From assembly GCA_951406725.2 (NCBI GenBank), contig OX597834.1, positions 45,198,001 through 45,262,000 of the forward strand: DNA of 64,000 bases, in the 5' to 3' direction. Each line of letters begins with the position of its first letter. Within the stretch, counting starts at the first letter, position 1. This stretch comes from Octopus vulgaris. Taxonomy: Eukaryota. The notes beneath the pieces were generated by a model, which did not search any database, was not told the DNA's origin, and was given only the letters and a program-made list of their open reading frames with translations. Below, in pieces: positions 1 through 48,693 of the stretch. Made by a program: the position numbers and the translations under genes.

Positions 1-734
1 TATATGTATGATTATATGTATATATATATATATATATACATATATATACTTATACGTATAATGCATACACCTATATATTTGCGTATATATATGCACTTAT
101 ATATAAATATATAGGCATACATATTCACATGCGCACGCTCACACACACACAGTACACAGTCACACACACAAGCACACGCACATGTATATATATATATATT
201 CTTTTTTATACAGAACGAGAGAGAGAGAGAGAGAGAAAAGAGAAAGAAATTACTTTGATGTGATCAATTTATTTTACTCGGATCCATTAAAATATTTCAT
301 ACGCAGCTCTTGTTTCGTTATGTGTGTAAATGAAGCAAAGTTAGGCTAGTTTTTAATGATGTGGTGTTATATAATATACAATAAAAACGAAGCAAACGTT
401 GATATTTTGAATACATTTAATACGCTTGTTTCATGTAGTTCTGTAAGAAAAATATTGGTCTTACATGAAGCCTCTCTCTCTTAAAACAATTCAAAATGTA
501 GATGATAATGCAACGGTGTTTGGGACTCAATGCTTGACAAAACTTTTTGTCTGCTTTTACGCTTACGTAACGTAGAATTTCAGGAAACATTCGATCGATA
601 GAATAGCGTCAGAACCTTAGTATACTAAGTGTTCCGAGCCATTTGTTAATATATAAAAGACCCTAGAATGAAATATACCTACGTGGTTGCATTTAAATGA
701 ATAATATAATAATAATTAGTAAAAATCATTCCAT

Positions 735-1020
735 CGATTTCGATGATGATCGTTCGAGATGACCCGATCAAGGGACCAGTCGGCTCCTGATATTAACCAG
801 CAACATAAGGAGCACGTCATAGGCATGATTACCCTAAACATAATTCTCAGACAGATTCAGAATGGAAAAGCGTCACAAGATTAACAGTTTGAAATTCAGG
901 TAGAACTCATTTTCCCAGTTAATTGGAATGAGGCAACTGGAACTAAATTGTTTTGCTCAAGGAGACGACGCGCCACTGGGAATCGATCTCACGACTTTAT
1001 GATCGTGAGCAGAAATCTCT
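735..1020 (-). mobile_element. Diverged tRNA-derived SINE remnant
   Basis: Minus strand reads ...gctcacgatcataaagtcgtgagatcgattcccag...tccttgagcaaaacaattt...: a degenerate B-box followed by a CORE-like ccttgagcaa motif. Boundaries are approximate. Confidence 0.45.
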
Positions 1021-1025
1021 AGCAG

Positions 1026-1194
1026 TAGGAGTGGAGTGGCTGTGTGGTAAGTAGCTTGCTTACCAACCACATGGTTCCGGGTTCAGTCGCACTGGGTAAG
1101 TATCTTCTACTATAGCTTCGGGCCAACCAAAGACTTGTGAGTGGATTTGGTAGACGGAAACTGAAAGAAGCCCGTCGTATATATATATATATAG

Positions 1195-1226
<32 letters not shown>

Positions 1227-1452
1227 ATGTTTATGTGTCTGTGTTTGCCCTCCCACCCAACATCACTTGACAACCGATGCTGGTGTGTTTACGTGCCCGT
1301 AACTTAGCGGTTCAACAAAAGAGACCGATAGAATAAGTACTGGGCTTACAAAGAATAAGTCCTGGAGACGATTTGCTCGACTAAAGGCGGTGCTCCAGCA
1401 TGGCCACAGTCAAATGACTGAAACAAGTAAAAGAGTAAAGAGTAAAGAGTAA
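1026..1452 (+). mobile_element. Near full-length tRNA-derived SINE with an internal (TA)n(TG)n microsatellite (octopus-type)
   Basis: A-box TGGCTGTGTGG, B-box GGTTCAGTC, internal TA/TG tract, 3' tail ggtgctccagcatggccacagtcaaatgactgaaac, then (AGAGTAA)n. Homologous copies lie at 18279-18711 and 55230-55645. Confidence 0.85.
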
Positions 1453-2004
1453 TGTACCCGCATTCACCAAATACCAGAAATATAGAAATTTTTCGAATGT
1501 TCATATATTATTGTATATATCTATGAGGTTTCAATGACCTGAGGAATTTGTGTAAAATGTCTATTTGAAATGAGTTCCAAAGAGAAACGAATCTGATTTG
1601 TTTATTTCATTGTCGCTTTTTTAACATTCATTTAATCAACTTGTATATTACATTTAAACACACGTAACAAATTAAACAGACGTATGTTTATACACACAAA
1701 ATGTGTCAACTCGTATTTGGAAAAACGCAGACACACTCGAACACAACTTCAAATATGGCTACAAAAACGGACGCATTGAAAGGCATCAACAAACGCGCAT
1801 ACATACAACAGATACACGAACACACACTGGGGCGGGCACAAACAGACAACACCATTTTTACATAGATACGTATACCTATATAAATATACACACATATATA
1901 TATTTATGTATGATTGTATGTATGTAGACATATATGCATATATGCATATATATATATGATTGTATGTATGTAGGCATATATGCATATATATATATGTATA
2001 TATA

Positions 2005-2066
<62 letters not shown>

Positions 2067-2140
2067 GTATGTAAATACATATGTATGCATGTGTGTATAC
2101 ATATATACATGCGTATATCTTGAAAAATCACATGTCGATG

Positions 2141-2174
<34 letters not shown>

Positions 2175-2444
2175 TGTGTGTGTGTGCGTGTCTGTATCTG
2201 TGTGTGTGTACGAATTTGTGTGTCTATATGTGTGTAGATATCTGCATATGAGTGTTTTTGTGTCTGCATGTGTATGTGACACTCACTGCAGCCAATGTGT
2301 ATAAGATTCTATATTAGATTGCAATATTTACATAGGTTGATAGTTAATTCGAATTTTCATGGAATATTTACATTGTAAACACCACTAATGTATTCTAATT
2401 TAATTAACACAAACACAGACAGGTATGTACGTTTGTATATAGGA

Positions 2445-2500
<56 letters not shown>

Positions 2501-2515
2501 ATGTGTGTGTGTGTG

Positions 2516-2635
2516 TGCATGTATAGATATATAGGAATATACATGTATATATATATGTAAATATATACACACATATATATATATTTACATATATATATAT
2601 ATATACATTTATATTCCTATATAACTATACATGCA
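2516..2635. repeat. Imperfect fold-back palindrome in TA-rich sequence
   Basis: tgcatgtatagatatataggaatata...gtaaatatata pairs with tatatttac...tatattcctatataactatacatgca, with few mismatches. Confidence 0.75.
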
Positions 2636-2645
2636 TATATATATA

Positions 2646-2678
<33 letters not shown>

Positions 2679-4154
2679 TTTTTCTACCCCTTGTCATTTT
2701 ATTGTTACGAGTGAACAAGTTATTTCCTCAATTTGTGTCTTCGATATATACACTCGCGCACATGGAGGCACATCCACACACATACGCACAAACACCCAAA
2801 CACACACACATGCGCTGTCTCTTTCGCCTCATACGCTCACTATAATACGTGTGTGTAAGCATACATATATATACATATGTACATAACTATGTCTCTCTCT
2901 ATATATATAGATATATATAATATATGAATTTATCTACGTATAACAGTTAATGATATATATGTTTGTGTATGTCCGTGTGTGTCTCTGTCTGTATGAATAT
3001 ATGTACACGCGTTTGATTATATGCATGAATATTTGTATATATACACACTAGTGTCTCAAAATTATGGATACTTTCTTTATATTTAAACGTTTTGCGCTCT
3101 ATACGTTTTTCCACCACAAAATATATCTTACGATCAACATCAAAGGATATTTTTATTGTTTTCCAACAAACATCGCTTAAAAACTCTTATTGTTCGTTAA
3201 CTGTGTATGACAGCTTTAAGATGTTGTTACTCTAAACTGCATACATACACTTTGAAATCAGAAGTACTTCAAACTTATAAAACAAAATAATTTTATATAT
3301 TTTACAATATGGCTGTTTGTAATTATATGTAAATTAATTATATGTATGTTATTCTTTAATCTGATTCCACTTATTCTCAGTATGGTATCGATAATTTATT
3401 TTTAATTCTCTGGTTTTTATTATTGTAAATCAGACATCGGTGATTGTTTCAATCACTTCAAGTTTGTTGATCCTTCCGGAAATCGATACTCTCTTGTCGA
3501 TGTTTTATCTCCAAGTTTCCAGTGTTCAAAAGTAAATTTATGTATTACTTTTGTTTTGAGTAGAGATTTATCATTCCGTCTTTCAACCATTTCTTTCCGG
3601 ATTTAGTTGTATGACACTATGTACAATATTTAGCATATATCAAATAAACGTAGCGCTGTTCTATATATCATCCAAATACATTTTGATCGAACTTGCACAG
3701 AAATAAACTTAATTAGATATAAGAATGTCATTAATAATACAGATACACAATTTTTTCCTAGATTATATAGTCTATTAACAATTAAATTTCACCGAGACAT
3801 CTATCTAATAAAATACAGTTTTTTCGGGAAGTTGTCTGAAATAAAACTAGAAAAAGTATTCTCCTAAAGAATAGCAAGCCACACAAATAGGGAAAATGAA
3901 AATGGCAAATAATATAAAATAGTGCTTATGCACACTTTAATCCATATTATACATGCATAGGCGTTACCAGCAATGCCTTTAAATTTGGTTTCAACCAGCA
4001 AAAACATACATTTCACCCATAAGGTACTAATGAAATTTTGCTTTCTATATAGTTAATCCAAATATGAAAACACAAAAGAAAAAACACAATAACGCGAGGA
4101 CGTGGAACAAGTGTGGTGTTATTGGACGCTCAGGAAAGGAAAGAAAGAAGGAGG

Positions 4155-4189
4155 ATTTAACGTTTCGAGCGGAGCTCTTCGGCAGAAAC
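4155..4189 (-). ncRNA. Degenerate minimal hammerhead motif in a Penelope-like terminal fragment (fragment ~4066-4240)
   Basis: Minus strand gttt-CTGCCGA-a-gagc(tcc)gctc-GAAA-cg-T-T-aaat. Stem II and the AACGTT palindrome are present, but the conserved core A6 is replaced by C. Confidence 0.5.
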
Positions 4190-4364
4190 ATAGAAAAAGG
4201 AAATGTCCGAGCAAGGGAAGACGGAGAAAGCAAATCGCCATATATAACAGTATTTTAGAAGCTTACAGCTTATAAGCGAATACCGTGCAATGACTAGCGA
4301 AAATAGACTAATAACGGGAAAAAGTACGTCTTTCTATACTCGTGGGCCTAGAAGCCACATCTCA

Positions 4365-4880
4365 GAAAGAAGCGAGGTTTACGTTGTCGCAAATGGTTAG
4401 CACATTTGTCCCGAAAAGAAAGGGATGAGGGTCGAGTCCGATGCGTACTGGAAAATCTGTTGTCTCCCGCTTATATGCCCAATTCTTAGTTTCTTTTCTT
4501 TAGTCATTGCACGCTGATCGCTTATAACTTTTAAACTTATAAAATACCATTATTATCATTTACAGAATTGTAAAATATCGACGCTGGTGAACAAAAGCCG
4601 ATGCAGAAAATGCGTTTTAAAGTTTGATTACAAAAACAACTCTACAAACAAATTATACTTCCTGAATGTGGTGGAAAGAAGCGAGGTTGCACGTTGGTTT
4701 AAATGGTTTGCACACTTGTCGCGAAAACAGAGCGATGTGGTTTCGAGTCGCATGCGTACGGGAAAACTTACTTTATTCTGTCGAGGGCTTTTATGCCCCA
4801 TTATTGGACTATTTAATTTAATCACTGAACGGTGATCGCTTATCAGCTTTGAGCATATAAGATACTACTATTATTAATTA
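4365..4880 (+). repeat. Two tandem diverged copies (~310-bp period) of a tRNA-like-headed element; third copy near 33470-33640
   Basis: Both units begin gaaagaagcgaggtt..acgttg...aaatggtt.gcaca and share the tail ..cg.tgatcgcttat. The second unit has T-arm atgtg-g(tttcgag)t-cgcat. Confidence 0.6.
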
Positions 4881-4991
4881 TATTCTTCGCTGCTGCACAA
4901 AAACCATAGTAGAAAAATCATATATAGAGATGTGCGTCTATGCACATATGTATCAGATAGTTAACAGACACGCACACACACACATATATAT

Positions 4992-5118
4992 TTCGAAAAG
5001 GGACCGATGGAATAAGTACCAAACGTATACGTATTGGGGACGATTTGTTCGAATAAAATGCAATGCTCCAGCATGGCCACAGTCAAATTAGTGAAACAAG
5101 TTGAAGAATAAAAGAATA
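4992..5118 (+). mobile_element. SINE 3' fragment (same family as 1026-1452)
   Basis: gaccgatggaataagtac...cgatttgttcga...tgctccagcatggccacagtcaaatt aligns with 1323-1430. Confidence 0.75.
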
Positions 5119-5785
5119 TATATATACGTATGTATGTATGTATGTATGTATGTATGTATGTATGTATGTACGTATGTATGTATGTATGTATGTATGTATG
5201 TATGCATGTATGTATTATGTATGTATGTATATGTGGGTGTGTGTGTGTGTAATTCCTAAATTATCCGCGAAAAATTCTAATTCAGAGAAATAAGAAAAGC
5301 CATTCCAATCTGATGACGGACGTCGATCTCGGCCGGATAATTCCTCAGACGTTGATAACTACAGGGAAAGAGACATTGCGTCATGAAACGCCGTATATAT
5401 ATCCGGCAATATTTATGTAATCAATTTTGTATGTTATTTCAGACAATGAAGTCCTTAGAAATATATTATATCATTCTTTAGTTGAGAAGTTCGTTAATAA
5501 TTCTACTGGATTCAATTACAAATTAATAGAATTACTTCTTTGAATAATTCCTGTTATTTGCGATATGAACGGTCGACAAAAATTATATGTATTTATGTTG
5601 GTATGTATATAGGCATGCATGCACGTATATCGGTATGTACTATGTATGTCTATATACAATATTGGCCTGAATGTATATATGCATGTGTGTATATATACAT
5701 GCATGTATGCATGAATGTGTATATCTATTAATCATTGGCTGAATGGGTTTTCATGCATCTATGTATACATCAATGTATATACGGT

Positions 5786-5870
<85 letters not shown>

Positions 5871-6062
5871 ATTTACATATGTATGTATATATGTGAATAT
5901 CTATCTATCCATATTTATATGTACATATATATATATACATATATACACCTAAATAGAGATATAGACTACATATACGTAAGTAGGTATATTTACATTACAT
6001 AGTTATGTCTACGCCTATAGATATCACCACATGTGTATACACATGCACACACACAGACACAC

Positions 6063-6123
<61 letters not shown>

Positions 6124-6800
6124 ATACTATCCGTGTGTCTACATACGCATATATGTATATTTAGCTTCACATCTAACAGTGAACTCATTTCTGTGCATAT
6201 ATACGTGTACATGTGTTTAAGACGCACGTACATCGCTGTGAGCAATTATCTATGTATAGCGATAACCGGCGGATAATTTACGATGAACTGCATGGATACG
6301 TTACGATGGGTCATGCCAAACAGGTCACCAAGTTCACCATGCCAGAAGCCTAAAATTCTTCACATGGAAGACTAATTGCCCGGACATTTGTTGAATAGAT
6401 TTTAATACTATATCACGCTTTATTCTCGAGGTATACAACGATTCCGCTCTGCCACAAATATCGTTTTAAATACCAAAAATGAGTTAAATTTAAACCAATC
6501 ACAATGGCAGATATATCGTTATAAATAGAATGCATTGTAATATAAAACATTCTAGCATAGTGATGCGTTGTGTGGTATTTATTCATCTCTGACAGGAGAA
6601 TTATTATTTATAAAGTAGCAGCCGCCATTTTTCTATTTGATTTCAAATTGTGCGAGAAACGGCGATCACTAAGCCGTGGAATAAATTTGGCATTTATGTA
6701 AAATGTTCTAAGGGATCAAACCTGTATTTATTGAATTTTAGTAAATGCATCGTATGTCTATTGTTCCTGGATAATTTTTTTTCGCCGTCTCCACTATTTT

Positions 6801-6940
<140 letters not shown>

Positions 6941-7051
6941 TCTTATAGCTTTTCAACCTGAAACGATGTTATATCGTGCGTCATAGCAGAACAAGAATTA
7001 GGTTTTCGATTAAAACATTCAATATTGAAGAAGAACAAGAAGAAGAAGAAG

Positions 7052-8212
7052 CGATTTCTTATCTCCATTACTATCTGTATTGGCCATGATTCCACTGGGT
7101 TTGATATTTCTGAGGAGTTAAAATTGCTTAAGATTGAGGAAAATTATATGATCTGACAAATCATTCCCTTTTATTGATGATAGAAATCTTTATGCTTAAA
7201 AAGTGAAGAAACTTGAAATTCTCGTCCATTCTGTAGGGGTTTTCTCAAATGGCGGAGACGTAGAATTTTGTATTAAAACGTGAGCTAAGAGGGCGATTCA
7301 AGGAATCCAAGGAATTAAAATGCCAATCGGCCAAACAATGAAAGGAGAGTGGTAAAAATGTTTGGGGATATTGGAAGCAAGTGACATAAAACATGAAGAG
7401 ATGAAGCACATTTACAAGTTGAGAGTATTCAAGAAGAGTGAGAAAAGTATTGCCGACAAAGCTGAATTCATGAAGTGTCAATTGAAGGAAGAGTTGTACC
7501 AGTAATAAAATATGGTGTTGTACAAAAGCGATGTACAGAAACTTGATAGTAAACTACAAAACTATTGACAATATATGGAGCGAACCATCCGAAAGTTGAT
7601 ATTAACCAGTTGTTCTTGAAGTGAGAGCAGGGTGGAAGGGATCGCTGTGGTACAGTGTATACAGATGGAAAGAAAACGCCTACTAGAATATTTACAGAAC
7701 GCCAGTGAGACATTATTAAAGCTAGTAAATAAAGAACAGGTAATCAAATGAGGAATAGGTTAAAGGGACAAGATTGAAATTCAAAGAGAAATTGAAGAGA
7801 AACCTTTGTATATTAGGAAATTATTATTATTAAATCTCACAACGTGAGATATTCAGCAAGAGTTCTTTGGAGTAAAGATTGTTTGCCAGCATATCATGGC
7901 AGTTCTGGATTAGCAACATTCGTGCTAAACCCGTACTGCCATTTTTACCCCAACATTAAGTACAGTCAGTTTTGAAAAGAGCCACTGAGTATGTAAAACC
8001 TGGGCTTGCTTGAAGAAAAGAACAATTAAAAGAAACAAAGAGAGGGCCTTATTGTAGCAGCTCGAGATCAAGCGTGAAAAACAACTTTAAAAAATGTAAT
8101 ATTTGTATGGGTAGACGGTGTCACCAAAGTCAAGATTGTATAGATTTTGGAGTGAAAGTATGACACACTTTGTCTCGAATCGTTCTGAGTTGGTCAGGGA
8201 GAATATAAGAAA
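7052..8212 (+). pseudogene. Decayed R4/Dong-clade non-LTR retrotransposon RT and C-terminal region
   Basis: Broken frames give DFLSPLLSVLAMIPLGLI, FIDD..LYA, LGILEASDIKHEEMK, LLTIYGANHPKVDINQLFLK.EQGGR and EGLIVAARDQA, in the order expected for R4-type elements. Many stops and frameshifts. Confidence 0.75.
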
Positions 8213-28725: not shown

Positions 28726-29383
28726 AGCAAGAAGTTATGAAAGCTGTCATCAAGGTTGGTTAATGATTCTTCCATGTCTTTGAGGCTCTCTTCAAATGAG
28801 TTTCTATGCTTTGGAACATCTCGTGGACGATAATTTGTATATTTTTACCAGTTTTATCCCTTTTATGTGTATTACCCGTGTGTTACAAAATGCGTTTGAG
28901 GGTGAGAGCAGGGACTACAGGCGTAGTGTGGTTGTACATTGCAATTCCTGTCATTTCCAAATACAACATCCTTTGGTATGTGTATCTCAGCTTCTGGCAA
29001 ATCAACGTTCAGCTATGCTTCTGTTAGTGCCAAACATATTGATTGATTGCAGGTAACTAAATGTCTCAGGTATGAGGATTTGCATTAGAGGCACTTTACA
29101 TGGCCACAGACATTCAGAGGCAAAATACTAGTGTGACATATGCTGTCGGTGGTGCTCAGTGCCCTCAAATTTGTAAAGGCGTCACAGGTTGCCACCCTGT
29201 GTCTGTTGATATTGTCTGCAGTTGTGTAAGTTTGGATATATTTATAAATACTGAAACACTCACACTAATAAATGGAAATATGCAAATATATAAGCAGAAA
29301 TATGCAGAAATATGCAAATATATACGCACACACACACGTGTAATCAAATATAGAAATATAAACACGTACACACATATGTATGC

Positions 29384-29414
<31 letters not shown>

Positions 29415-29488
29415 CATACATATATGGACGTGCACGCACATATATGCAAATACATACATTCATGTACAAACATGCCGGCACTTACATT

Positions 29489-29519
<31 letters not shown>

Positions 29520-29535
29520 GCATACACGTACTCAC

Positions 29536-29563
29536 CGTACAAATAGTCATATAAACTGTTTAC
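29536..29563 (-). CDS. Candidate 28-nt micro-exon (phase 0-1, VNSLYDYLY)
   Basis: Acceptor gatttcttattgtttAG and donor ACG|GTGAGT. Only the phase-0 frame is stop-free. Confidence 0.35.
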
Positions 29564-37149: not shown

Positions 37150-38300
37150 CGCTTTTGACTTTTAGACATGTAGTAGGCTCAAGAGAGCTCTTCAGAATAA
37201 GCCGCCGTCCTACATTGAAGAACGAACACTTTCTGTTATCGTTGCCAAGTTTTGTAGCTGATGGTTTAACCGGTCCATTTCTCTTTCAAGTGCCATATGT
37301 GGCAAGAGTCTTGTTGTTTCTGTTTACTCCAATTTCTGAAAGAGTGTGTGCGGTTATTAAATCTTATTTTGAAGCTTCCTTGCGTTTGTTTCACTTATTT
37401 CTACGTAGAGATTACGTTATCAGGAATGTCCCTTTGACTGACTCTTCGTTTATAATGTGCTCTGTCTTACAGGCTCCTTTTAGTGGTCACAGATCTCAGT
37501 TCTTCCATCAACAGCTGTTGGTGGTGCCCCCCCCCCCTTTGCAATTACATTTTTAAAAGTAGCAGCAGCAGTAAAACTATTCTTTAATTTATTTATATTG
37601 AAAAGTTTTCTCCGTTTATTATTGCACGGACATACTAATATATTAAGGCACAAACCATTTTGCCTATATTAGTGAAAACATCTGGAGTGGAGGGTGGTCT
37701 GAACCAACTTACATTCTAGTAGTTGTTCCTTCTCCGCAGTGGACCCTTATAAGAAGTTCTCTTCAGAAGTCACCTGTCTTTAAGACATTGTTACATAGGG
37801 TGGTATCCTTGTCCAAGACTTCTCTAACTAAAGGTGATCCTGAAAATCCCCTTACTTGTCTTCCTCGCTAATTTTCTAAAATATAGAAACATAGATATCC
37901 ATGATGTCAAATTGTGTGAATCAAGCTTCTATCTTTTCTATAATGTTCTTCAACCAATCAATAACTTCCACTACGCTGGACCATTGCTAATCTTGATATT
38001 CCTCAGTATGTCCTTACCCAGTCCTATATCTTAATTGGACGTGTTGTTTAGCTTCCATTTAGTGTTACTAATAACGTTATTTTGTGGTCTTTGATGGTAA
38101 AAAAATCCTTTTGGTTCTATCTAGCTCTCTAACTTCAGATGAATGGAAATAAAATTCACTTCTTATTGATATTATTCCATACATGGTCTAGGTACCAGGT
38201 AAACTATCATAGGCAAGGTGTGATGTGTAATATAATCTAAACTTAGGGGTTTTATGTCTTTATCTGATAGAGTCATCTTCTTCCAAAGATATTGAGTTAT
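37150..38300 (-). pseudogene. Penelope-like (Naiad-type) element remnant: RT, linker and GIY-YIG endonuclease, internally deleted
   Basis: In order on the minus strand: FTIKDHK, VIDWLKNI..FTQFDIMDIY, WFRPP..VFTNIGK, KLFNINKLK, KCNCK, PLKGACKTEHII, HIWHLKEK. Confidence 0.7.
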
Positions 38301-39223
38301 AATTCTTTTGCCATAACACGCTATTTCTAAATATATATATAAATACATACACACATGCACACATATATCTATGTCTGTATATATATGCGTGTATGTTTGT
38401 GTGTGTGCGTATGTGTTTGGGTGTATCCAGGTAAGTATATATATACACATATATGCATACATATATGCATGCACACATGTATACATAAAAACATATATAT
38501 ATATATATATATATACCTACACACATGCACACACATACATGCATAAATACATATATGTACACATAACTATACATACATACATGCATATTCCTCACACTAC
38601 AAACGAGTACACCGGTTTTCGTCCAGTCACTTTGCTATTTCTTATTTGCACCAAGACTTTACCGAGTCACTTCATTGCCTCTCGAATTCCGTTTGGATTG
38701 ACGCTGCTTTTTTTTGTCTTCTTTATTAATTCTTATTCCCTTTCATGACTGAATATCTTTATAACAATGACGGTCTTTCTACATAATTTTCTGTTTCCCA
38801 ATATGTTTCTCAATACAGGATTTTCTTTCTGCAGAAATTTGAATTGTCAAGATAGAATTTGCTTTTTTTTCTTCTCCATGCTGTTATTCGCGTAGATTCA
38901 TTTACATCTCACCCCATGTACTGCGTGCGTGGAGTACACGGAAAACATGAATCACATACTACGCATCTTACTCACAATCGTATAGGATGATAATAGATTG
39001 CACAATATATTTATATGTTATATATGCATTTGTATATTGTATATCTGTGTGTGTACCTATGTACCTATGTGTATGTGTGCGTGAGTGTAAATATGTACAT
39101 ACGCATACTCACACGCGTGTATATATGTACATATATGTTTTACATATATTTAATAATACGCCTATATACTAATATTTTGAATTAATCTTCCTGTTTACAG
39201 TACCAAGCCTGTATGTGTATGAA

Positions 39224-39274
<51 letters not shown>

Positions 39275-39284
39275 ATATAGAAGG

Positions 39285-39335
39285 AGCTTCTACAGGACTA
39301 GTACTATTTCATTCAAGAGAAATCTTCAGGAAGCT
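39285..39335 (-). ncRNA. Minimal type I hammerhead ribozyme (copy with a U-G pair in stem III)
   Basis: Minus strand agcttc-CTGAAGA-tttctcttgaat-GAAA-tag(tactagtc)ctg-T-A-gaagct. Confidence 0.7.
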
Positions 39336-40025
39336 ATTTAACAAGAATTGTATTAGCATTTATACATTTAGGCAGGTTTAAAGGAGTGGTGGTGGGGGAC
39401 TTTTTTGGGGGTAGGCATAGCGCAAAATATCATACTTGGGGGAGTGGTCAAGGAGTCGGTGGTAAGTTAGATGAAAGAATAGATAAATAAAAAAATAAAA
39501 AAATAAAATAAAAAAATAAAAAAATAAAAAAATAAAAAATATATATAAAAAATATATATATATAAAAAAATATATATATAAAAAAAGGGGGGATAGAGTT
39601 ATAGGTAAATAAGGAGATTCTCACTTGTACCTATACACACATGTATACGTATCTACACACATATATATACTCATATATATATATATATATATACATATAT
39701 ATACACATATACATATATACACATATACATACATATCTACATACACACATACATACACCCGCCCACATATACAAATTTATACACATGCACATGCATATAC
39801 CTGTCTACACATACACACACGTATATATGCATACACTCACTCCCATGCATGCACGCATACACACATGTATACATATACACACGACCACACATACATATAT
39901 ACACAGAAAAATATATATTCATACGCACATACACTCATGCACCCACAACACACCTAGTTCCCTATATACACATATTTACACCTATATATACATACACCCA
40001 CATACACATATGTACATATATATAT

Positions 40026-40056
<31 letters not shown>

Positions 40057-40161
40057 CATATACACGCATACACATATATACATGTGTGCACATACATACA
40101 TATACACATATACATACACACACACATACACATGTGTACCTATACATACCTACACATACAC

Positions 40162-40212
<51 letters not shown>

Positions 40213-40605
40213 ATCCAATACAGGCCCATTCCCTAATTTTAATTTTATTATCTTCATTTATTACTTTTGTTATCTTTGATCGCTAGAGCTAAGGATCCTG
40301 GCTATGGCAGCATGTCCATTTGTCTGTCTACTAGAAGGCAAGTACTCATTCCCGCACGCACACTCATTAGCACGTACATTCACCCATTCGTACACTCATA
40401 CACATACACGTACGCACGCGTTATATTCATACATACAAACATCTACATACGTTCACGTATATACACATACGTACTCGTACCTACAGATTCGTGTCTACAC
40501 TTTAGGAGGCTAGTCTATACATATACACCAATAAATATACATATATATATATATACACATATACATACACACACACACATATACTCCTACATACAGATAC
40601 ATACC

Positions 40606-40659
<54 letters not shown>

Positions 40660-41386
40660 CATACACACACACACATATATATACACACACATACATACAC
40701 ATATATATACATACACAAACATATATACACACATATATATATATATATATACACACATACACACACATACATACATATACACACAAACACATACATACGT
40801 ATACATACATACATACATCCATACATCCATACTTACATGCATTTATACGCATACACCCCCCCCATCTATATATATATATATATATATATACACACTCACA
40901 CATACATATACAAATATACGCACACACATACATACATACACGTATACGCATACACGCACATACACATATACATGCGTACCCATACACGTGCACACACGCA
41001 CGTGCATCCATATATATACACACACACACACATATATACACGTGTGCAAGCATACATACATACTCATACACGCACACATACTTACATATACATATATGCA
41101 CACACTTACACACATATATACATACACATATACATGCATACATACATATATGCATACATACACATACACGCACATACACATATACATGCGTACCCATACA
41201 CGTGCACACACGCACCCGCATCCATATATATACACACACACACATATATATACACGTGTGCAAGCATACATACATACTCATACACGCACACATACTTACA
41301 TATACATATATGCACACACTTACACACATATATACATACACATATACATGCATACATACATATATGCATACATACACACACGCGCA

Positions 41387-41446
<60 letters not shown>

Positions 41447-41620
41447 CACACATACACATACATATACATACACACATACATATACATACACATACACATA
41501 CGTACATATATATATATATATATACACATATATACACATATACACATACATATATACACATATACATACATATACATACACACACATATACATATATACA
41601 TATACACTGATACACATACC

Positions 41621-41664
<44 letters not shown>

Positions 41665-41761
41665 TATACACATGCATATACTTATATCTCTACATACTCA
41701 CATATAAACATATATACATATACACACACATATATATACATGTACATACACATACATATAC

Positions 41762-41802
<41 letters not shown>

Positions 41803-42085
41803 CCCATATATACATATATATATATACACACACACACACACATACATATACACATATACATGTATACATACGCAATAATGATACACATATATACACATAC
41901 ACACACACAGTATTTTATTATTTTATTTTTTTATTTATCTATTCTTTCATCTAACTTACCACCGACTCCTTGACCACTCCCCCAAGTATGATATTTTGCG
42001 CTATGCCTACCCCCAAAAAAGTCCCCCACCACCACTCCTTTAAACCTGCCTAAATGTATAAATGCTAATACAATTCTTGTTAAAT

Positions 42086-42136
42086 AGCTTCCTGAAGATT
42101 TCTCTTGAATGAAACAGTACTAGTCCTGTAGAAGCT
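42086..42136 (+). ncRNA. Minimal type I hammerhead ribozyme
   Basis: Stem I agcttc/gaagct; core CTGAAGA (42092-42098); weak stem II ttc(tctt)gaa; GAAA (42111-42114); stem III cag/ctg with ACTAGT palindrome in the loop; GUA triplet with predicted cleavage after 42130. Confidence 0.8.
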
Positions 42137-42219
42137 CCTTCTATATAATAAATTAATTTTACTCTGCTATGTATTGAGTACCTTACTTACTGTGGTTAAC
42201 CCCGAATCAACCCGGGACC

Positions 42220-42255
<36 letters not shown>

Positions 42256-42368
42256 AAACAATTTAGATTCAAATGAATATGGTACTTAACTTAGATGCAC
42301 CAGAATTTTTTTATGGTATTACCCATAAAATTATGTGGGGTGATTATAACATATTGCTTATTTTTGGG

Positions 42369-42449
<81 letters not shown>

Positions 42450-42900
42450 TGCCAGGGTACTTAGGAGTCTCTGATATGTCCTACAGGTAGCATGGAATCC
42501 AGTACAACCTGTTTCATGGTTGGGTCGTCGGCAACTATACCGGCATTCCCATCAGGCTACCCTGGTGAGGAGGGCTGCTAGCAACCCAGCAGAATTAAAA
42601 ACAAGACCTGTTGAAAGTTCAGATAAACTTAGTGCTGGCTCAACGGCTATCTAGCAAGAGCACGGGTACGTAGAAATTCTGTTTGGTGTCCGGCGTGCTA
42701 GAAGACTACAGGGAATGGCATTGGACGCTTTAGAGAATTTGGATTTTTCCTAGTGATCAAGGCGCTCACACATCCTTGAGCTTGCCACTCTTATTGGCAC
42801 CAGACTTCTTGCTCTGGATTGTCTCTGGATAATGTCAATGTATTGGAGAGCGAACCTAAAACTTTGGACAGGCATTGCTGACCTCGTGCTATATGTGCTG
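42450..42900 (+). mobile_element. Possible LINE 5' UTR remnant
   Basis: GC-richer block (ggttgggtcgtcggcaact...ggctaccctggtgaggagggc) resembling RTE-type leaders from memory. No coding support. Confidence 0.3.
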
Positions 42901-43338
42901 CTTTTTTCCCTATACATATATATATTTATCATATTTTCAGTATACATGTATCTTTATTTTTAGTATATATTTATTATATTTTTATACGGAAGTCTTGCGG
43001 CGATGGGAGGTCGGCCAAGCATACAGACCTGATGAGTTGGAAGCATATAATTAGCGACCTGCATATAAGCGGCCCATGCTAAATATAAAGTCGCCTCCTT
43101 GTGGCCCAAGGCAACGATAGCGCTTCAGCCCGCGAGCAACAAGTGCAGTGCGTCTTTCAGGCCTGAAATGTCCAAGTTCCAGATTTTGTAAAACAAAGTC
43201 TTTTTTCTAGAAAACAGGACAATGAAAACATAACAATGGTATTACCATAGTATGGAACTAGGAAAGCTTTGATCAAACCCGATTCACAGAAAAAGAAGAA
43301 GCTCTAAATTTCCCTCATAAGCTATCAGCGTAGTTCTG

Positions 43339-43434
<96 letters not shown>

Positions 43435-44844
43435 GATATACATATATATATATATAAAGGGGTTTGCATGATTGTGTATAGAGGGATATAGATTATTCGA
43501 AGAAATTCCAACTCTGTCTGTTTTTTTATGTTTTAATTATATTCTTAATAATATTAATGTAGAATATAGAATATATCTACATGATTAAAAAAGAAGAGAA
43601 ACTCAACCAGTGTGTGTGTGTATTACTGAGATAACGACCTTCCTCAGATACTTGTAACAAAGTATGTTTCAAATTAAAGGTTACATCAAGAACTTTCCAA
43701 ACCAAATACAAAAGAGAAAACAAAACCTTCATGGCATTCCTTTCAGTTGAAGTTTCATATACGCGCTTGATTAAGTGTATTCCACCTGAAACCGAAGGGA
43801 TATAGATGAAGGTGCGAATATCGACGAATTGGCTTTGAGAAAACTAACTGAATGACTGATCGACCGGATGATTAATAAGACATTTTACTAGTTACTTAGT
43901 TAAATAGTTAACCAATTGACAAATAAATAATAATTAAAGAAGTGTAATAGAATCTGTGTGTGTGTTTATTATTGGCATAATGAACCCTACCCAAGATAAA
44001 ACAAAGTAAGATTCAACTCAAGTAATCTCAAGTATCTTGTAAACCAAATGCAAAAATGAGACTCTTCCTCCATAACAATATTTTCCGTTTAAGTTTTATG
44101 TTTCCGCTTGATTAAACATTTTCAATAAACAAACACAAAAAGTTTTTGTATGCATAAAACTCATTTAACTAGACGACCTTCATTTGCAGACGTTCAGATT
44201 TGTAGTTGTTATAGAATCCTTGAAAGACAACACAGTAAAAATATCCCTCGGGAGATAAATCCAGAGCCACTCTGCTTCCTGTAATCTTTGCATTTATCGC
44301 TTGCACTAAGACACCGTTTGATTTAGAGTTTAATGCGGCTTTACAGAAAAACTTGTCATACGAAAGTCTTTAAGTAATTCCTCTCTTTCCCTCACTCACT
44401 TTCAGATGTGTTTTTTCTTTCTCTGCAATGTTGGAATTTATGGAATTTTTTTCTAATCAGTTTCTTTTCCAGTTGAGTGATTTCCTTATTTTGGAAAGTA
44501 GCTTATTCAACCACAAATATAGTTTTTTTTTTCTATTTTACATTTATGATATTATTTGATTTATTCTGTTTTTTTTTTTAATATTTGGTTATATGTTTTC
44601 TTTAATTTTGGGCCGATATTATAACATACAATTTTCTGTTCAATATTTAGAGTACATATAGATAATACATAACGCCAAATTTTTTTCTGCCTTAACTGAT
44701 TGGACTATATCTATGTACATATATACTATATATATATGTATATATATATGTGTGTGAGTGTGTGTGTGTGTGTGTAGATATATATATATATTGATTGATA
44801 CGCGGGTGTATGTAGTATCTATATTACATATATGTGTGTGTATA

Positions 44845-45240: not shown

Positions 45241-46634
45241 TCACATTCAGTTTCACGTTGACCATCACTACAATTAATATTTTGGATGGAATCTAACAGA
45301 TGCTGCCTTTCACTCAGTTTATATTTTGATATTTCTGAAGTGAAGAATGTAAACTTTTTCTATCTGATCATCACAGACTAAAGCAAACAATCTAGAATGT
45401 GTCTTATTCTACGCTTCCTTTCGCTATTAAATACGTAGAGTATAATTAGTCGACATTTGGCGGTTATTCACCCTAGGCCCGGTAGTTTGCTGTTGGTTCT
45501 GTCCTTCGTGGCAATGAATGTATGTATGTGTTTGTGTTTCTGTGGGCTCCCCACCACGTGCATTGTGTGTAAACCTCCCCCTCATATTTTCCCTATTCCC
45601 CTTAATTTAGATGAAACCATTAACTTGTGAATTTGGTCTCATATATAGCAAATCAATGTTAGTTTATAGTTATAATAAATCCATCATATTTATATACGTA
45701 TATGTGTATATGTATACATACACATATTCATAAACAACTGTCTACCCTTATATATAACTATATATATGCATATGGATGTATATATATATATATACACATT
45801 CATATATTCATATCTATATATATATTTATGTATATATGTTTGCATATACATGTATATATGTGTGTGTGACTACGCATGTATGTATATATATATACATACG
45901 TATATATATATATATATATATATGTTTACATATGTATAGGTATATACATACACAGTCAAACACTCACACACATATATACACATATATGAGATGTGTGTTT
46001 TTGTGCGTATATATATGTATGTATTCTAATGCGTATAGTCTAGAGTGTATAATTATGTGTACGTTTCCGTGCTGTTTTTGGTTGTCTGCGAGTATATTTC
46101 CGTGTATTTCAAACGACAGACGGCGATAATACGTGCTAGAGCAATAGTTCACTCTCTAAGTGGCATTTACAACCGGAAATGGGTTGGTATTAAGCAACGG
46201 ATATTTCAGCTGCCGTGTGCTATATTTAATCGAATCCAAACCATGAGAACCACAAATAAATATACAAAATAATAAATAACTAAATAAATTATAAAACATA
46301 CACGTATAATATTATTGGAAGAAAACCATGAAAAATGAAAGTAATGTGTTAGTTTTAGGTCATTCTACTATATTTTTGGTCATTGTAGTTGAAAATAATT
46401 TTCTCGAGAATTCTGGTAATTACTTTTGCGATTTCGTCTTCGTTTCACCTTACATTTAGATTTCCTCTTTTTTTTTCTGGTATTTTTTCAATTTCTTGTC
46501 ACACACAAACGCAGATACATACTCACATACACACGCACACACAAAGACAATCACATACACATACACACACATACATACATAACTATATATATAGACGCAG
46601 ACATCTGAACAATAGACATCCATTTGATATACAC

Positions 46635-46828
<194 letters not shown>

Positions 46829-46947
46829 GAACTGACACCCAAAATCGGATAAAATGACGGAGCGAGAGAGATACATACATACATTTCAAAAATAAATAAT
46901 CTTCCCTTATGTGTATACTACACATATGCATACATATATATATATAC

Positions 46948-46999
<52 letters not shown>

Positions 47000-48693
47000 A
47001 TATATGTATATACAGATGTACATATTCATATAGACATATTCATATAGACATGTATATATAATCTGAGGTGTCTATATACTTCTGCTAAATGCTAACGTTC
47101 TGTTCTTTCAACGGTGTACTTATTCCATATAAGATGTTGGAGGCGGGGATGATTATAGGATGCCTTCTTCGTGTTAAATTGCCCTTTGAGAGATTGTTAA
47201 ATTGCAACGTATATTCTACTCAGATAGTCATCAACATGAAAATTATATTTATAAAATTATCTGGAGACCGGTCCGCTTGGCAAAGTCTACTGAGCGACGG
47301 TGGTAGATTGTGAGACCTGTATAATTATAGGAACCTGGTGATGGCAGTAAGTACGCAACGTCAATATTCGTGTGGATATCTTGGACACGTTGTGTATATT
47401 TAGAAGTGGTAATCACATAGTGTGTAGGCTCAAGCCTGGCTTAAAATTTTTGGGTAGCTGGTAGTTGGTGCCGAGATTGTTACAAACGGTGTCTATTGCG
47501 ATAAGCGTAAAAGTCAGAAAACTTGGTCTTGAAAAGATAGATGGTCAGTGTATAGCTGATGCCTTGATAGGAATTATAGTATGAATAGATATACTGCGTG
47601 TCTGGGTGTGTTCAGTGGATTAATATTTATTGTGTGTACAAGATGCCCGGATGAAATTATGCAAGTCTGAAGATGTTAAGCTGTTATTTTAGGTTGTCTG
47701 ATAAATTCGTTCGTTGTTTATTTATTTATTTATTTATTTTTGTAGTCTACGTGGCACTCCATCATCATATGTCTGAAAAGAGATGAAGTTTATTGGAATG
47801 GGAAAAAAAAGAGGATAAACGAAATTTCTAGTGGAGAATTGGTGCTAGAAAACCACAAAACTATGTTAAAAATATTTTTCGTGTTAATTCAGATATCATT
47901 AAAAATGATTAACTCATAATCGTTTTCAACATTAATCATTAATTAAAACGTTGGCAGAATCTTTAGCGCTGCAGGCAAAATGATTGACGACATTTCATCC
48001 GTTTGCACGGGATCGGTTTAAATTCTGCCGAGGTCGGTTTTGTTTCCCATCCTTTCGCAGTAACATTTGAGCTCCCCGGAATGACAGGCCATCCGTCGAA
48101 ATTTGAAACTAATCTCAATCGTTAACATAAATGAGAAACAAATAAAGCAAAAACACAAAACAAACTAATTTATCCGACAACGGAGTATAAACAGACGTGG
48201 TTATGGTGTTGGACTACAAATGGTAAAATCCGCGGGCAAGTTACTTGCAAAGCGAGAAGCGTATTACGATCGAACCAGCAATCATGTGATTGCATCACGA
48301 ATATCTTATCGGCACACTCGTATCTTCTGAAAACTTTCAAATAAGTCAAATACTTAACTGTTGCGGTTGGGGTTGGTGGTGGTGGTGTATTGTGAAAGCG
48401 AAGAGAACTTTCACATAGTTCACTTGAAACTTTCGAGAACACTTCGCTGTTTACATCATATGTTAACTTTACGTAAAATATAAAAGTAAATTGATATAAA
48501 AAAGATACAAAAATAAAAACAGTACAACAACAACTTTACAACAACAAGCTAAAAAGACAGGATAATTTTATAATAATAAATTGCTGTATTTCTAAAAACG
48601 CTCTGTCGAGTTCGTTATTGCATGCATGTACCAGGATACAATACATTTACTTCAGCAAGCAAATGCACTTAAAACCCGACGACATTATTATAG

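Follow-up and report, generated by a model that had tools for sequence, protein, structure and literature searches.

The window, a 64-kb stretch of Octopus vulgaris DNA (G000:C21:45198001-45262000), contains two inverted arms at 39270-39510 and 41911-42151 that are each 241 nt long, are 99% complementary with 2 mismatches in 241 columns, and are separated by 2,400 nt. The arms are unequal because the right one runs on, along the plus strand, into a 70-nt tail (42152-42222). On the minus strand, the left arm and the interior together form a long, tail-less arm of ~2.6 kb (39270-41910), whose outer end lies at the position equivalent to 42151. Its outermost part is a pLTR copy, delimited by the inverted-repeat alignment (39270-39510), and the rest (39511-41910) is a microsatellite mosaic that is TG/TA-rich in the element's sense and ends in a (T6A)n tract. 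The right pLTR copy (41911-42151, plus strand) is truncated at its 5' end within the (T6A)n tract, and alignment and junction mapping place its head-to-head boundary with the long arm at 41910/41911. The sequence on either side is a (TA)n target tract (39223-39269 on the left, 42223-42252 on the right). All ten open reading frames of at least 80 aa in the interval are microsatellite translations. A preliminary description of this DNA had reported near-identical terminal inverted repeats, a CA/TA-rich interior lacking a real ORF, and a surrounding (TA)n tract, and each of these points held. We also observed a 214-bp tandem duplication (~2.4 copies) in the 3' UTR of the window copy (41010-41387), which is present in 1 to 3 copies in other insertions, and, by eye, a splice-donor-like GTAAGT on the minus strand of the tail (42172-42190). 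Elsewhere in the window, 29236-29558 and 46500-47078 matched many of the sampled loci and are either further common repeats or sequence of low complexity.

A pattern scan of the window for hammerhead ribozymes returned three matches: one at 42086-42136 on the plus strand, one at 39335-39285 on the minus strand, and one loose 4-bp match at 1539. The right motif, which has the sequence typical of the family's genomic copies, consists of a 6-bp stem I, CUGAAGA at 42092-42098, GAAA at 42111-42114, and a GUA triplet; cleavage is predicted after A42130. Stem II (UUC/GAA) has a U-U opposition at its base, and stem III combines CAG/CUG with an A15.1-U16.1 pair (4 bp) beneath an 8-nt loop containing ACUAGU. 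Given this full stem III, the motif is not the "minimal" hammerhead of the preliminary description. In the left motif (39285-39335, minus strand; predicted cleavage after 39291), a C15.2-to-U change at 39306, found in one of the family's motif matches, weakens the predicted active fold (-5.4 versus -7.3 kcal/mol). Thus, outward-facing hammerheads with a complete core, one per strand, were recovered as previously described; that both are complete stands at the level of the pattern, with a weaker predicted fold on the left. The U-U opposition at stem II had been read as a warning sign. By our count by eye, however, it occurs in 14 of 25 Hydra families (PMC8557442 File S2), and it is no mark of decay.

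The covariance-model check that had been proposed for the hammerhead came out negative. A search of Rfam with 41930-42222 gave two chance matches and no hammerhead, and among the 171 matches to 38000-43500 there was again no hammerhead, the 150 listed being below-threshold matches to low-complexity sequence. Furthermore, the 51-mer motif folded no better than its shuffles (z = -0.17), and the folding z-scores of five stretches were unremarkable. In light of these results, identification of the motif rests on pattern and conservation and not on folding energy. We therefore turn to 11 hand-picked arms from three subfamilies (~100, 97, and 93% ORF identity), in which variation touched only 1 of 38 core and stem columns; it was more frequent in free columns (4 of 13; P = 0.012) and upstream columns (42 of 150; P = 0.0004). 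The changes fell at N7, loop II, and loop III, and CUAG was kept in all 11 arms. The expectation of conservation across copies was therefore borne out for core and stems, but not for covariation: there were no compensatory pair changes among these arms, the subfamilies being too close. The features of a type I hammerhead are all present, namely, CUGANGA, GAAA, the UH core, and three stems, conserved against their flanks.

Metazoan PLE hammerheads are reported to have low activity, to depend on dimers, and to occur as opposite-strand pairs (PMC4209133). Folding predictions for our motif fit dimer activation, with a self-duplex of the stem III region at -15.2 kcal/mol compared to -1.4 kcal/mol for the hairpin. 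The predicted pairing probability of stem I is 1.0 for the motif alone, 0.10 in a 121-nt context, and 0.0 in a 237-nt context, and an 8-bp hairpin predicted over the cleavage site (42127-42145, plus strand) would compete with stem I. We infer a weak, conditional ribozyme, assisted by dimerization or protein and opposed by the hairpin, that would process full-length tandem transcripts; in the truncated window copy it is presumably a passenger. Since that copy has a single sense motif per strand, it cannot form a hammerhead dimer in cis; the complementarity of the arms would allow masking of the hammerheads by double-stranded RNA. Other type I hammerhead patterns, unrelated to the window's family, were seen in six fetched loci (L125, L141, L162, L038, L061, and L159) and probably belong to further PLE families.

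To place the locus in its genomic context, we searched the 2.8-Gb genome (227 contigs). With the right arm plus 70 nt as the query, there were 1,226 first-look candidates, of which 40 were scored: the window and 39 copies at 99.65%, all with the 70-nt tail. An exact 33-nt hammerhead half-motif occurred 1,120 times. On contig C1, 97 such sites fell into 57 clusters containing 37 outward, 3 same-strand, and 0 inward pairs within 12 kb, with spans between outward hammerheads ranging from 46 nt to 10.2 kb. The genome search suggested by the preliminary description thus yielded many copies, on C1 mostly as outward pairs. Extrapolating from C1, there would be ~650 young insertions genome-wide, and the family would total roughly 2 to 3 Mb, or ~0.1% of the genome. 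We examined 38 ten-kb loci selected for carrying a full tail: interior markers recurred in a fixed order and in sense with the pLTR, and an inverted hammerhead arm was present in 30 of these 38 other copies. Among 30 insertions, with seven nested or tandem loci left out, paired arms differed at 42 of 11,645 columns, or ~0.18% per arm; since sequence error is included, this is a maximum. As the preliminary description had it, the locus is Penelope-like and young and its arms are inverted pLTRs. Two loci (L036 and L069) contain nested insertions into the element's own UTR. We also noted miniature head-to-head insertions of ~150 to 200 bp with little beyond two outward hammerheads and a tail: one (L036 oriented 7076-7290; G000:C7 near 109,394,400) sits inside another copy's 3' UTR, and one (L134 oriented ~6064-6220) lies just after the pLTR of another copy.

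The family encodes a protein. In two loci, L069 and L141, the pLTR, tail, and ORF stand in tandem, and the unit order is hammerhead, a 137-nt 5' UTR that includes the tail, an RT plus GIY-YIG ORF, a ~3.1-kb microsatellite 3' UTR, and the pLTR. From cleavage site to cleavage site, the unit in L141 measures 5,453 nt. After the 70-nt tail, tandem copies continue with ATAT and 41 nt to the ATG, 137 nt past the cleavage site; by comparison with L036/L069 and L141, the tail is the part of the 5' UTR between two putative reverse transcription start sites. The hammerhead lies in the pLTR on the ORF-sense strand. The ORF is ~713 aa long when the two frames of L141/L069 are summed. The interior markers of the window copy recur, in order, downstream of the ORF in other copies, and in L141 the 3' UTR holds 18 (TA)n tracts of at least 12 nt. 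The length of this UTR is ~3 kb in most younger copies and ~1.9 to 2.3 kb in 4 of 7 copies of the oldest class (0.9 to 4.5 kb overall). Aligned to L141, the long arm of the window is 98.2% identical over 2,291 columns to unit positions 3182-5529, i.e., 3' UTR and pLTR, which makes it a 5'-truncated copy of the last ~2.3 to 2.6 kb of the unit. The locus is thus a head-to-head pair of 5'-truncated pieces, as read from its alignments: the last 2.6 kb of the element, inverted and tail-less, joined to the last 0.3 kb with its 70-nt tail.

By its motifs and by-eye alignment with named families, the element is a member of the Hydra clade of Penelope-like elements with a C-terminal endonuclease (EN). 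This clade is described as having RT followed by GIY-YIG, DKT, RWK, CxCx5C, CxxC plus CxH, a (TA)n target, and a canonical hammerhead (PMC8557442 section 11). Natural in-frame RT-EN copies, the first of 680 aa (L126, L122, L124, L128, and L137), carry DKT (SDKTKN), CxCx5C (CNCHDKTTC), CxxC (CDLC), and CxH (CMH). Compared by eye with Fig. S7 of PMC8557442, the protein matches the Hydra rows and lacks CCHH. Arm ends in 38 loci and in the window lie in (TA)n. Among 8,000 sequences scored there were 299 homologs at E ≤ 1e-20. In the 120 listed, which are ~700 aa long, the DKT, CxCx5C, CxxC, and CxH motifs were present in 106 to 116, and the N-terminal motif was RWR, as in our element, in 25 and RWK in 78. 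The best homolog was 54% identical over 74%, and one was 42% identical over 668 columns. A Pfam search with the two L069 frames gave one sub-threshold unrelated match and neither RT nor GIY-YIG, and a PDB sequence search gave no match for either domain; the domain names accordingly rest on motifs and the published alignment. The family is young and likely autonomous. We also found a second, distant Hydra-like RT plus GIY-YIG ORF in two frames (L232 minus strand, oriented 551-3434; G000:C7 ~109,380,600-109,383,400), with long asparagine-rich stretches between domains that recall the N-rich inserts of Adineta Penelope elements. It had no hammerhead under the pattern scan, so it offered no cross-family covariation. 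Beside family copies there are open frames resembling other Penelope-type (Neptune/Poseidon-like) RT-EN elements (L055 oriented 2547-4039 and 4919-7109, L044, and L058).

Several properties set this element beside or apart from published families. The Hydra clade (Craig et al. 2021, PMC8557442), which includes Hydra-1_Obim and Penelope-13_HM, is like it in domain order, DKT, CxCx5C linker, CxxC plus CxH, and (TA)n target, and Hydra families have a canonical hammerhead, often with U-U at the stem II base, as in the window. Furthermore, Penelope-13_HM is represented by a 5'-truncated inverted copy with a hammerhead on each strand. In contrast, Hydra families are generally <3 kb, a descriptive and not a diagnostic figure, compared to 5.45 kb here, a length due to the ~3.1-kb microsatellite 3' UTR. 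In the same source, loop III is 1 to 3 nt in the 25 listed Hydra families, compared to 8 nt with a palindrome here, and RWK takes the place of our RWR. The protein and hammerhead of Hydra-1_Obim differ by eye from those of the window's family, which makes it a different family.

We mapped where the arms end and how they join. Ends fall at two sites, ~23 nt and 92 to 96 nt 3' of the predicted cleavage site. Tail-bearing arms, counted in sampled loci because a tail-only genome search gave no match, end at 42222-42226, where the element's ATAT merges into (TA)n. Of the tail-less ends, 28 of 29 lie at 42150-42157, 19 of them at 42153. With one exception, which continues into the ORF (L036), the listed arm ends all run into TA-rich tracts. 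Both end sites being 3' of the cleavage site, the template must have been uncleaved there or re-ligated. By pattern, exactly one tail was present in 34 of 36 outward pairs, the exceptions being a locus with a diverged tail that the pattern missed (L135) and a nested locus (L054). Likewise, 26 of 27 partners of a tail-bearing arm lacked a tail. The tail can be on the long or the short arm, with the tail-bearing arm being longer in 14 of 29 cases. Arm lengths vary freely between copies, the truncation points of the two arms are independent, and among 34 mapped pairs no combination of breakpoints recurs exactly. The (T6A)n tract is where ~12 of 68 arm ends stop, and this accounts for the ~240-bp arm of the window. 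Junctions overlap by 0 to 3 nt where both sides are unique; among the 34 mapped, one is a perfect palindrome (L049), three are near-symmetric within repeats, and 30 are asymmetric.

Our preferred reading, which we hold to be highly probable, is that a young, likely autonomous Hydra-clade PLE inserted here as head-to-head, 5'-truncated pieces lacking a protein; the insertion likely arose when the element's protein cut both (TA)n strands and reverse transcription was primed from both ends at two fixed internal RNA sites. In such an event, by analogy with in vitro work on an anole PLE, the endonuclease would nick both strands of the (TA)n tract. Each 3'-OH would prime at one of the two sites, on RNA uncleaved at that hammerhead. 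Both cDNAs would then stop early, often in the U-rich tract, and would be joined back to back with 0 to 3 nt of microhomology. The anole element, Poseidon_Ac (PAc) from the green anole (Frangieh et al. 2024, PMC11167929), encodes a protein reported to cut an AT-rich target in vitro and to extend both of its strands from two internal RT starts 3' of the hammerhead that bound the tail. Unprocessed RNA was its main substrate, and the protein was needed for hammerhead cleavage. Behavior of this kind (two nicks, two starts, two truncated cDNAs) would account for our locus. However, PAc belongs to another clade, and its tail is 30 to 40 nt long compared to ~70 nt here. In PAc the starts are within the ORF, where the sequence does not resemble the target, whereas both arm ends here are in the 5' UTR and are AU-rich and target-like. 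Moreover, the same start sites serve both strands in PAc, while here the arms differ in the site they use in 34 of 36 pairs.

A more specific version of this process can be offered only tentatively. Both arms may be templated by a single RNA, or by sister RNAs of the same source locus, bound by a protein dimer, such that the two target ends are assigned to different members of a pair of AU-rich start sites separated by 70 nt. Through this, ~3 kb of microsatellite mosaic, with new (TA)n tracts for the family to land in, would be copied to hundreds of places. This reading draws on the 26 of 27 one-tail partners, the nested UTR insertions (L036 and L069), and two kinds of shared variation in 30 insertions. 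Arms agreed at 42 of 44 common polymorphisms, compared to 36.1 expected if they were independent. In addition, 11 variants absent from all other sampled loci were common to both arms in 7 of the 30 insertions, including the window at 41963, which suggests one template. Gene conversion between arms, or rare source lineages, may instead explain the variants common to both arms.

An alternative that alters only the template step is that the hammerhead cuts tandem transcripts to unit RNA, which is ligated into a circle, and that RT begins immediately 3' of the site thus restored and may pass round the circle more than once. A circular template has been proposed for PLEs (PMC4209133), it fits arm ends that lie 3' of the cleavage site, and it fits copies of more than unit length, such as L141 with a partial UTR-pLTR-tail-ORF-UTR-pLTR. 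Yet uncleaved read-through RNA would yield the same DNA, hammerhead mutants of the anole PLE inserted normally in vitro (PMC11167929), and the hairpin predicted at 42127-42145 disfavors the active fold. On balance we regard a circle as unlikely, albeit the strongest competitor.

Another alternative concerns the protein. Full-length L141 and L069 are both split at the RT/EN junction; exact matches to the junction motif number 115 with 6 C (frameshift) and 22 with 7 C (in frame). If the 6-C state were real, the protein of most young copies would be split, and these copies would depend for their spread on -1 frameshifting or on rare in-frame copies acting in trans. To compare subfamilies, we sampled 30 loci each, the young set being picked on the EN region alone. 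From youngest to oldest, pure 6-C runs occurred in 24, 16, and 6 loci and pure 7-C runs in 1, 5, and 7, with 3, 1, and 5 unparsed. While the preponderance of 6 C in young copies favors a real frameshift, its recurrence in all three subfamilies, independent of haplotype, speaks against one. So do C runs broken by substitution, 9 of 12 of which have a length of 7 and none a length of 6, and the other long C runs of the element, which vary from 6 to 14 between copies. Moreover, shared SNPs 3' of the junction in 35 young copies were 6 synonymous to 1 non-synonymous (P = 0.002), an excess indicating that EN stayed under selection. Programmed frameshifting would account for this bias only, whereas an under-called homopolymer explains the recurrence, haplotype independence, broken runs, C-run variation, and SNP bias. 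We therefore rejected an inherited frameshift as the main reading and judge the break to be an assembly error of that kind; a real 6-C junction is improbable. None of 22 7-C copies examined (20 + 2) reached the ATG, so no full-length copy with an unbroken ORF was found. Among 21 candidates there were no short proteins across the junction, which does not settle the 6-C question. Separately, a second 1-base deletion in a 4-C run, at ORF position ~543 of the L126 reference, was present in 4 of 15 covering copies (L085, L088, L096, and L100) and points to a sub-lineage that is defective and was mobilized in trans, or else to a further sequence error.

Returning to the arms, the inverted one could also form by fold-back self-priming, possibly on an antisense template (PMC3846280), instead of by priming from both target ends. 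The perfect palindrome in L049 and the three near-symmetric junctions are compatible with such a route, as are private variants common to both arms, which fit copying of one arm from the other. However, the remaining 30 of 34 junctions are asymmetric, for which reason we rejected fold-back as the general route, and neither window arm contains the other, the long arm having no tail and the tail-bearing arm no UTR. Its probability is low, about on a par with that of a real 6-C junction or slightly below it.

Least probable by far is a separate non-autonomous family, retrozyme- or MITE-like, whose terminal inverted repeats are fixed and which is mobilized in trans as one unit; it is suggested by the missing ORF of the window copy, by the recurrence of ~200- to 240-bp arms, since many stop in (T6A)n, and by reports that animal retrozymes derive from PLE pLTRs (10.64898/2026.07.22.740005), but it is at odds with the wide range of outward spans, the absence of any exact breakpoint pair common among 34, and an interior collinear with the 3' UTR of ORF-bearing copies. 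Non-LTR retrozymes share the type I hammerhead and, like the window copy, lack a protein, yet they are described as head-to-tail tandem units with a hammerhead in each (10.64898/2026.07.22.740005), whereas the window holds inverted, truncated pieces of a protein-coding element. A retrozyme identity for the window copy was rejected on the 37 outward versus 3 same-strand pairs on C1 and on the protein encoded by the family, and a TIR DNA transposon or MITE on unequal ends, free arm lengths, and the lack of a fixed length. The preliminary description had proposed a non-autonomous retrozyme-like family; the alignment to L141 and the free arm lengths instead indicate a 5'-truncated insertion of a protein-coding family.

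Head-to-head insertions of this sort have precedents. Penelope elements of Adineta vaga have inverted pLTRs head to head, and one of the two arms bears a tail (Arkhipova et al. 2013, PMC3846280), and hammerhead pairs on opposite strands are reported in Schistosoma (Cervera and de la Pena 2014, PMC4209133), both as here. Compared to those PLEs, palindromic junctions are rare in our family, and target duplications are unreadable in (TA)n. The inverted-arm layout of PLEs has been in print since 2013-2021 (PMC8557442, PMC3846280). The family itself appears to be undescribed in the published text consulted, although supplements to those papers may hold it; the available text of an octopus repeat paper (PMC13282606) counts Penelope families without mention of Hydra or hammerheads. 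In titles and abstracts, mostly outside subscription papers, we found no report of twin priming or a shared template in PLEs, nor of frameshifting or microsatellite carriage. What departs from the listed Hydra families is the length of the microsatellite UTR, together with the 70-nt tail and a palindromic loop III of 8 nt. Less ordinary features of the family are the 3-kb microsatellite UTR, the confinement of the tail to one arm (34 of 36 pairs), and the private variants on both arms.

The window copy is ordinary, a truncated inverted PLE insertion, and the value lies in the family. Very young, high in copy number, and sharp at its ends, the family offers favorable natural material for examining the second half of PLE integration, including the formation of the inverted arm, the possible use of a single RNA as template for both arms, and the role of the hammerhead. 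It also illustrates concretely how a retroelement can spread microsatellites through a genome already rich in them.
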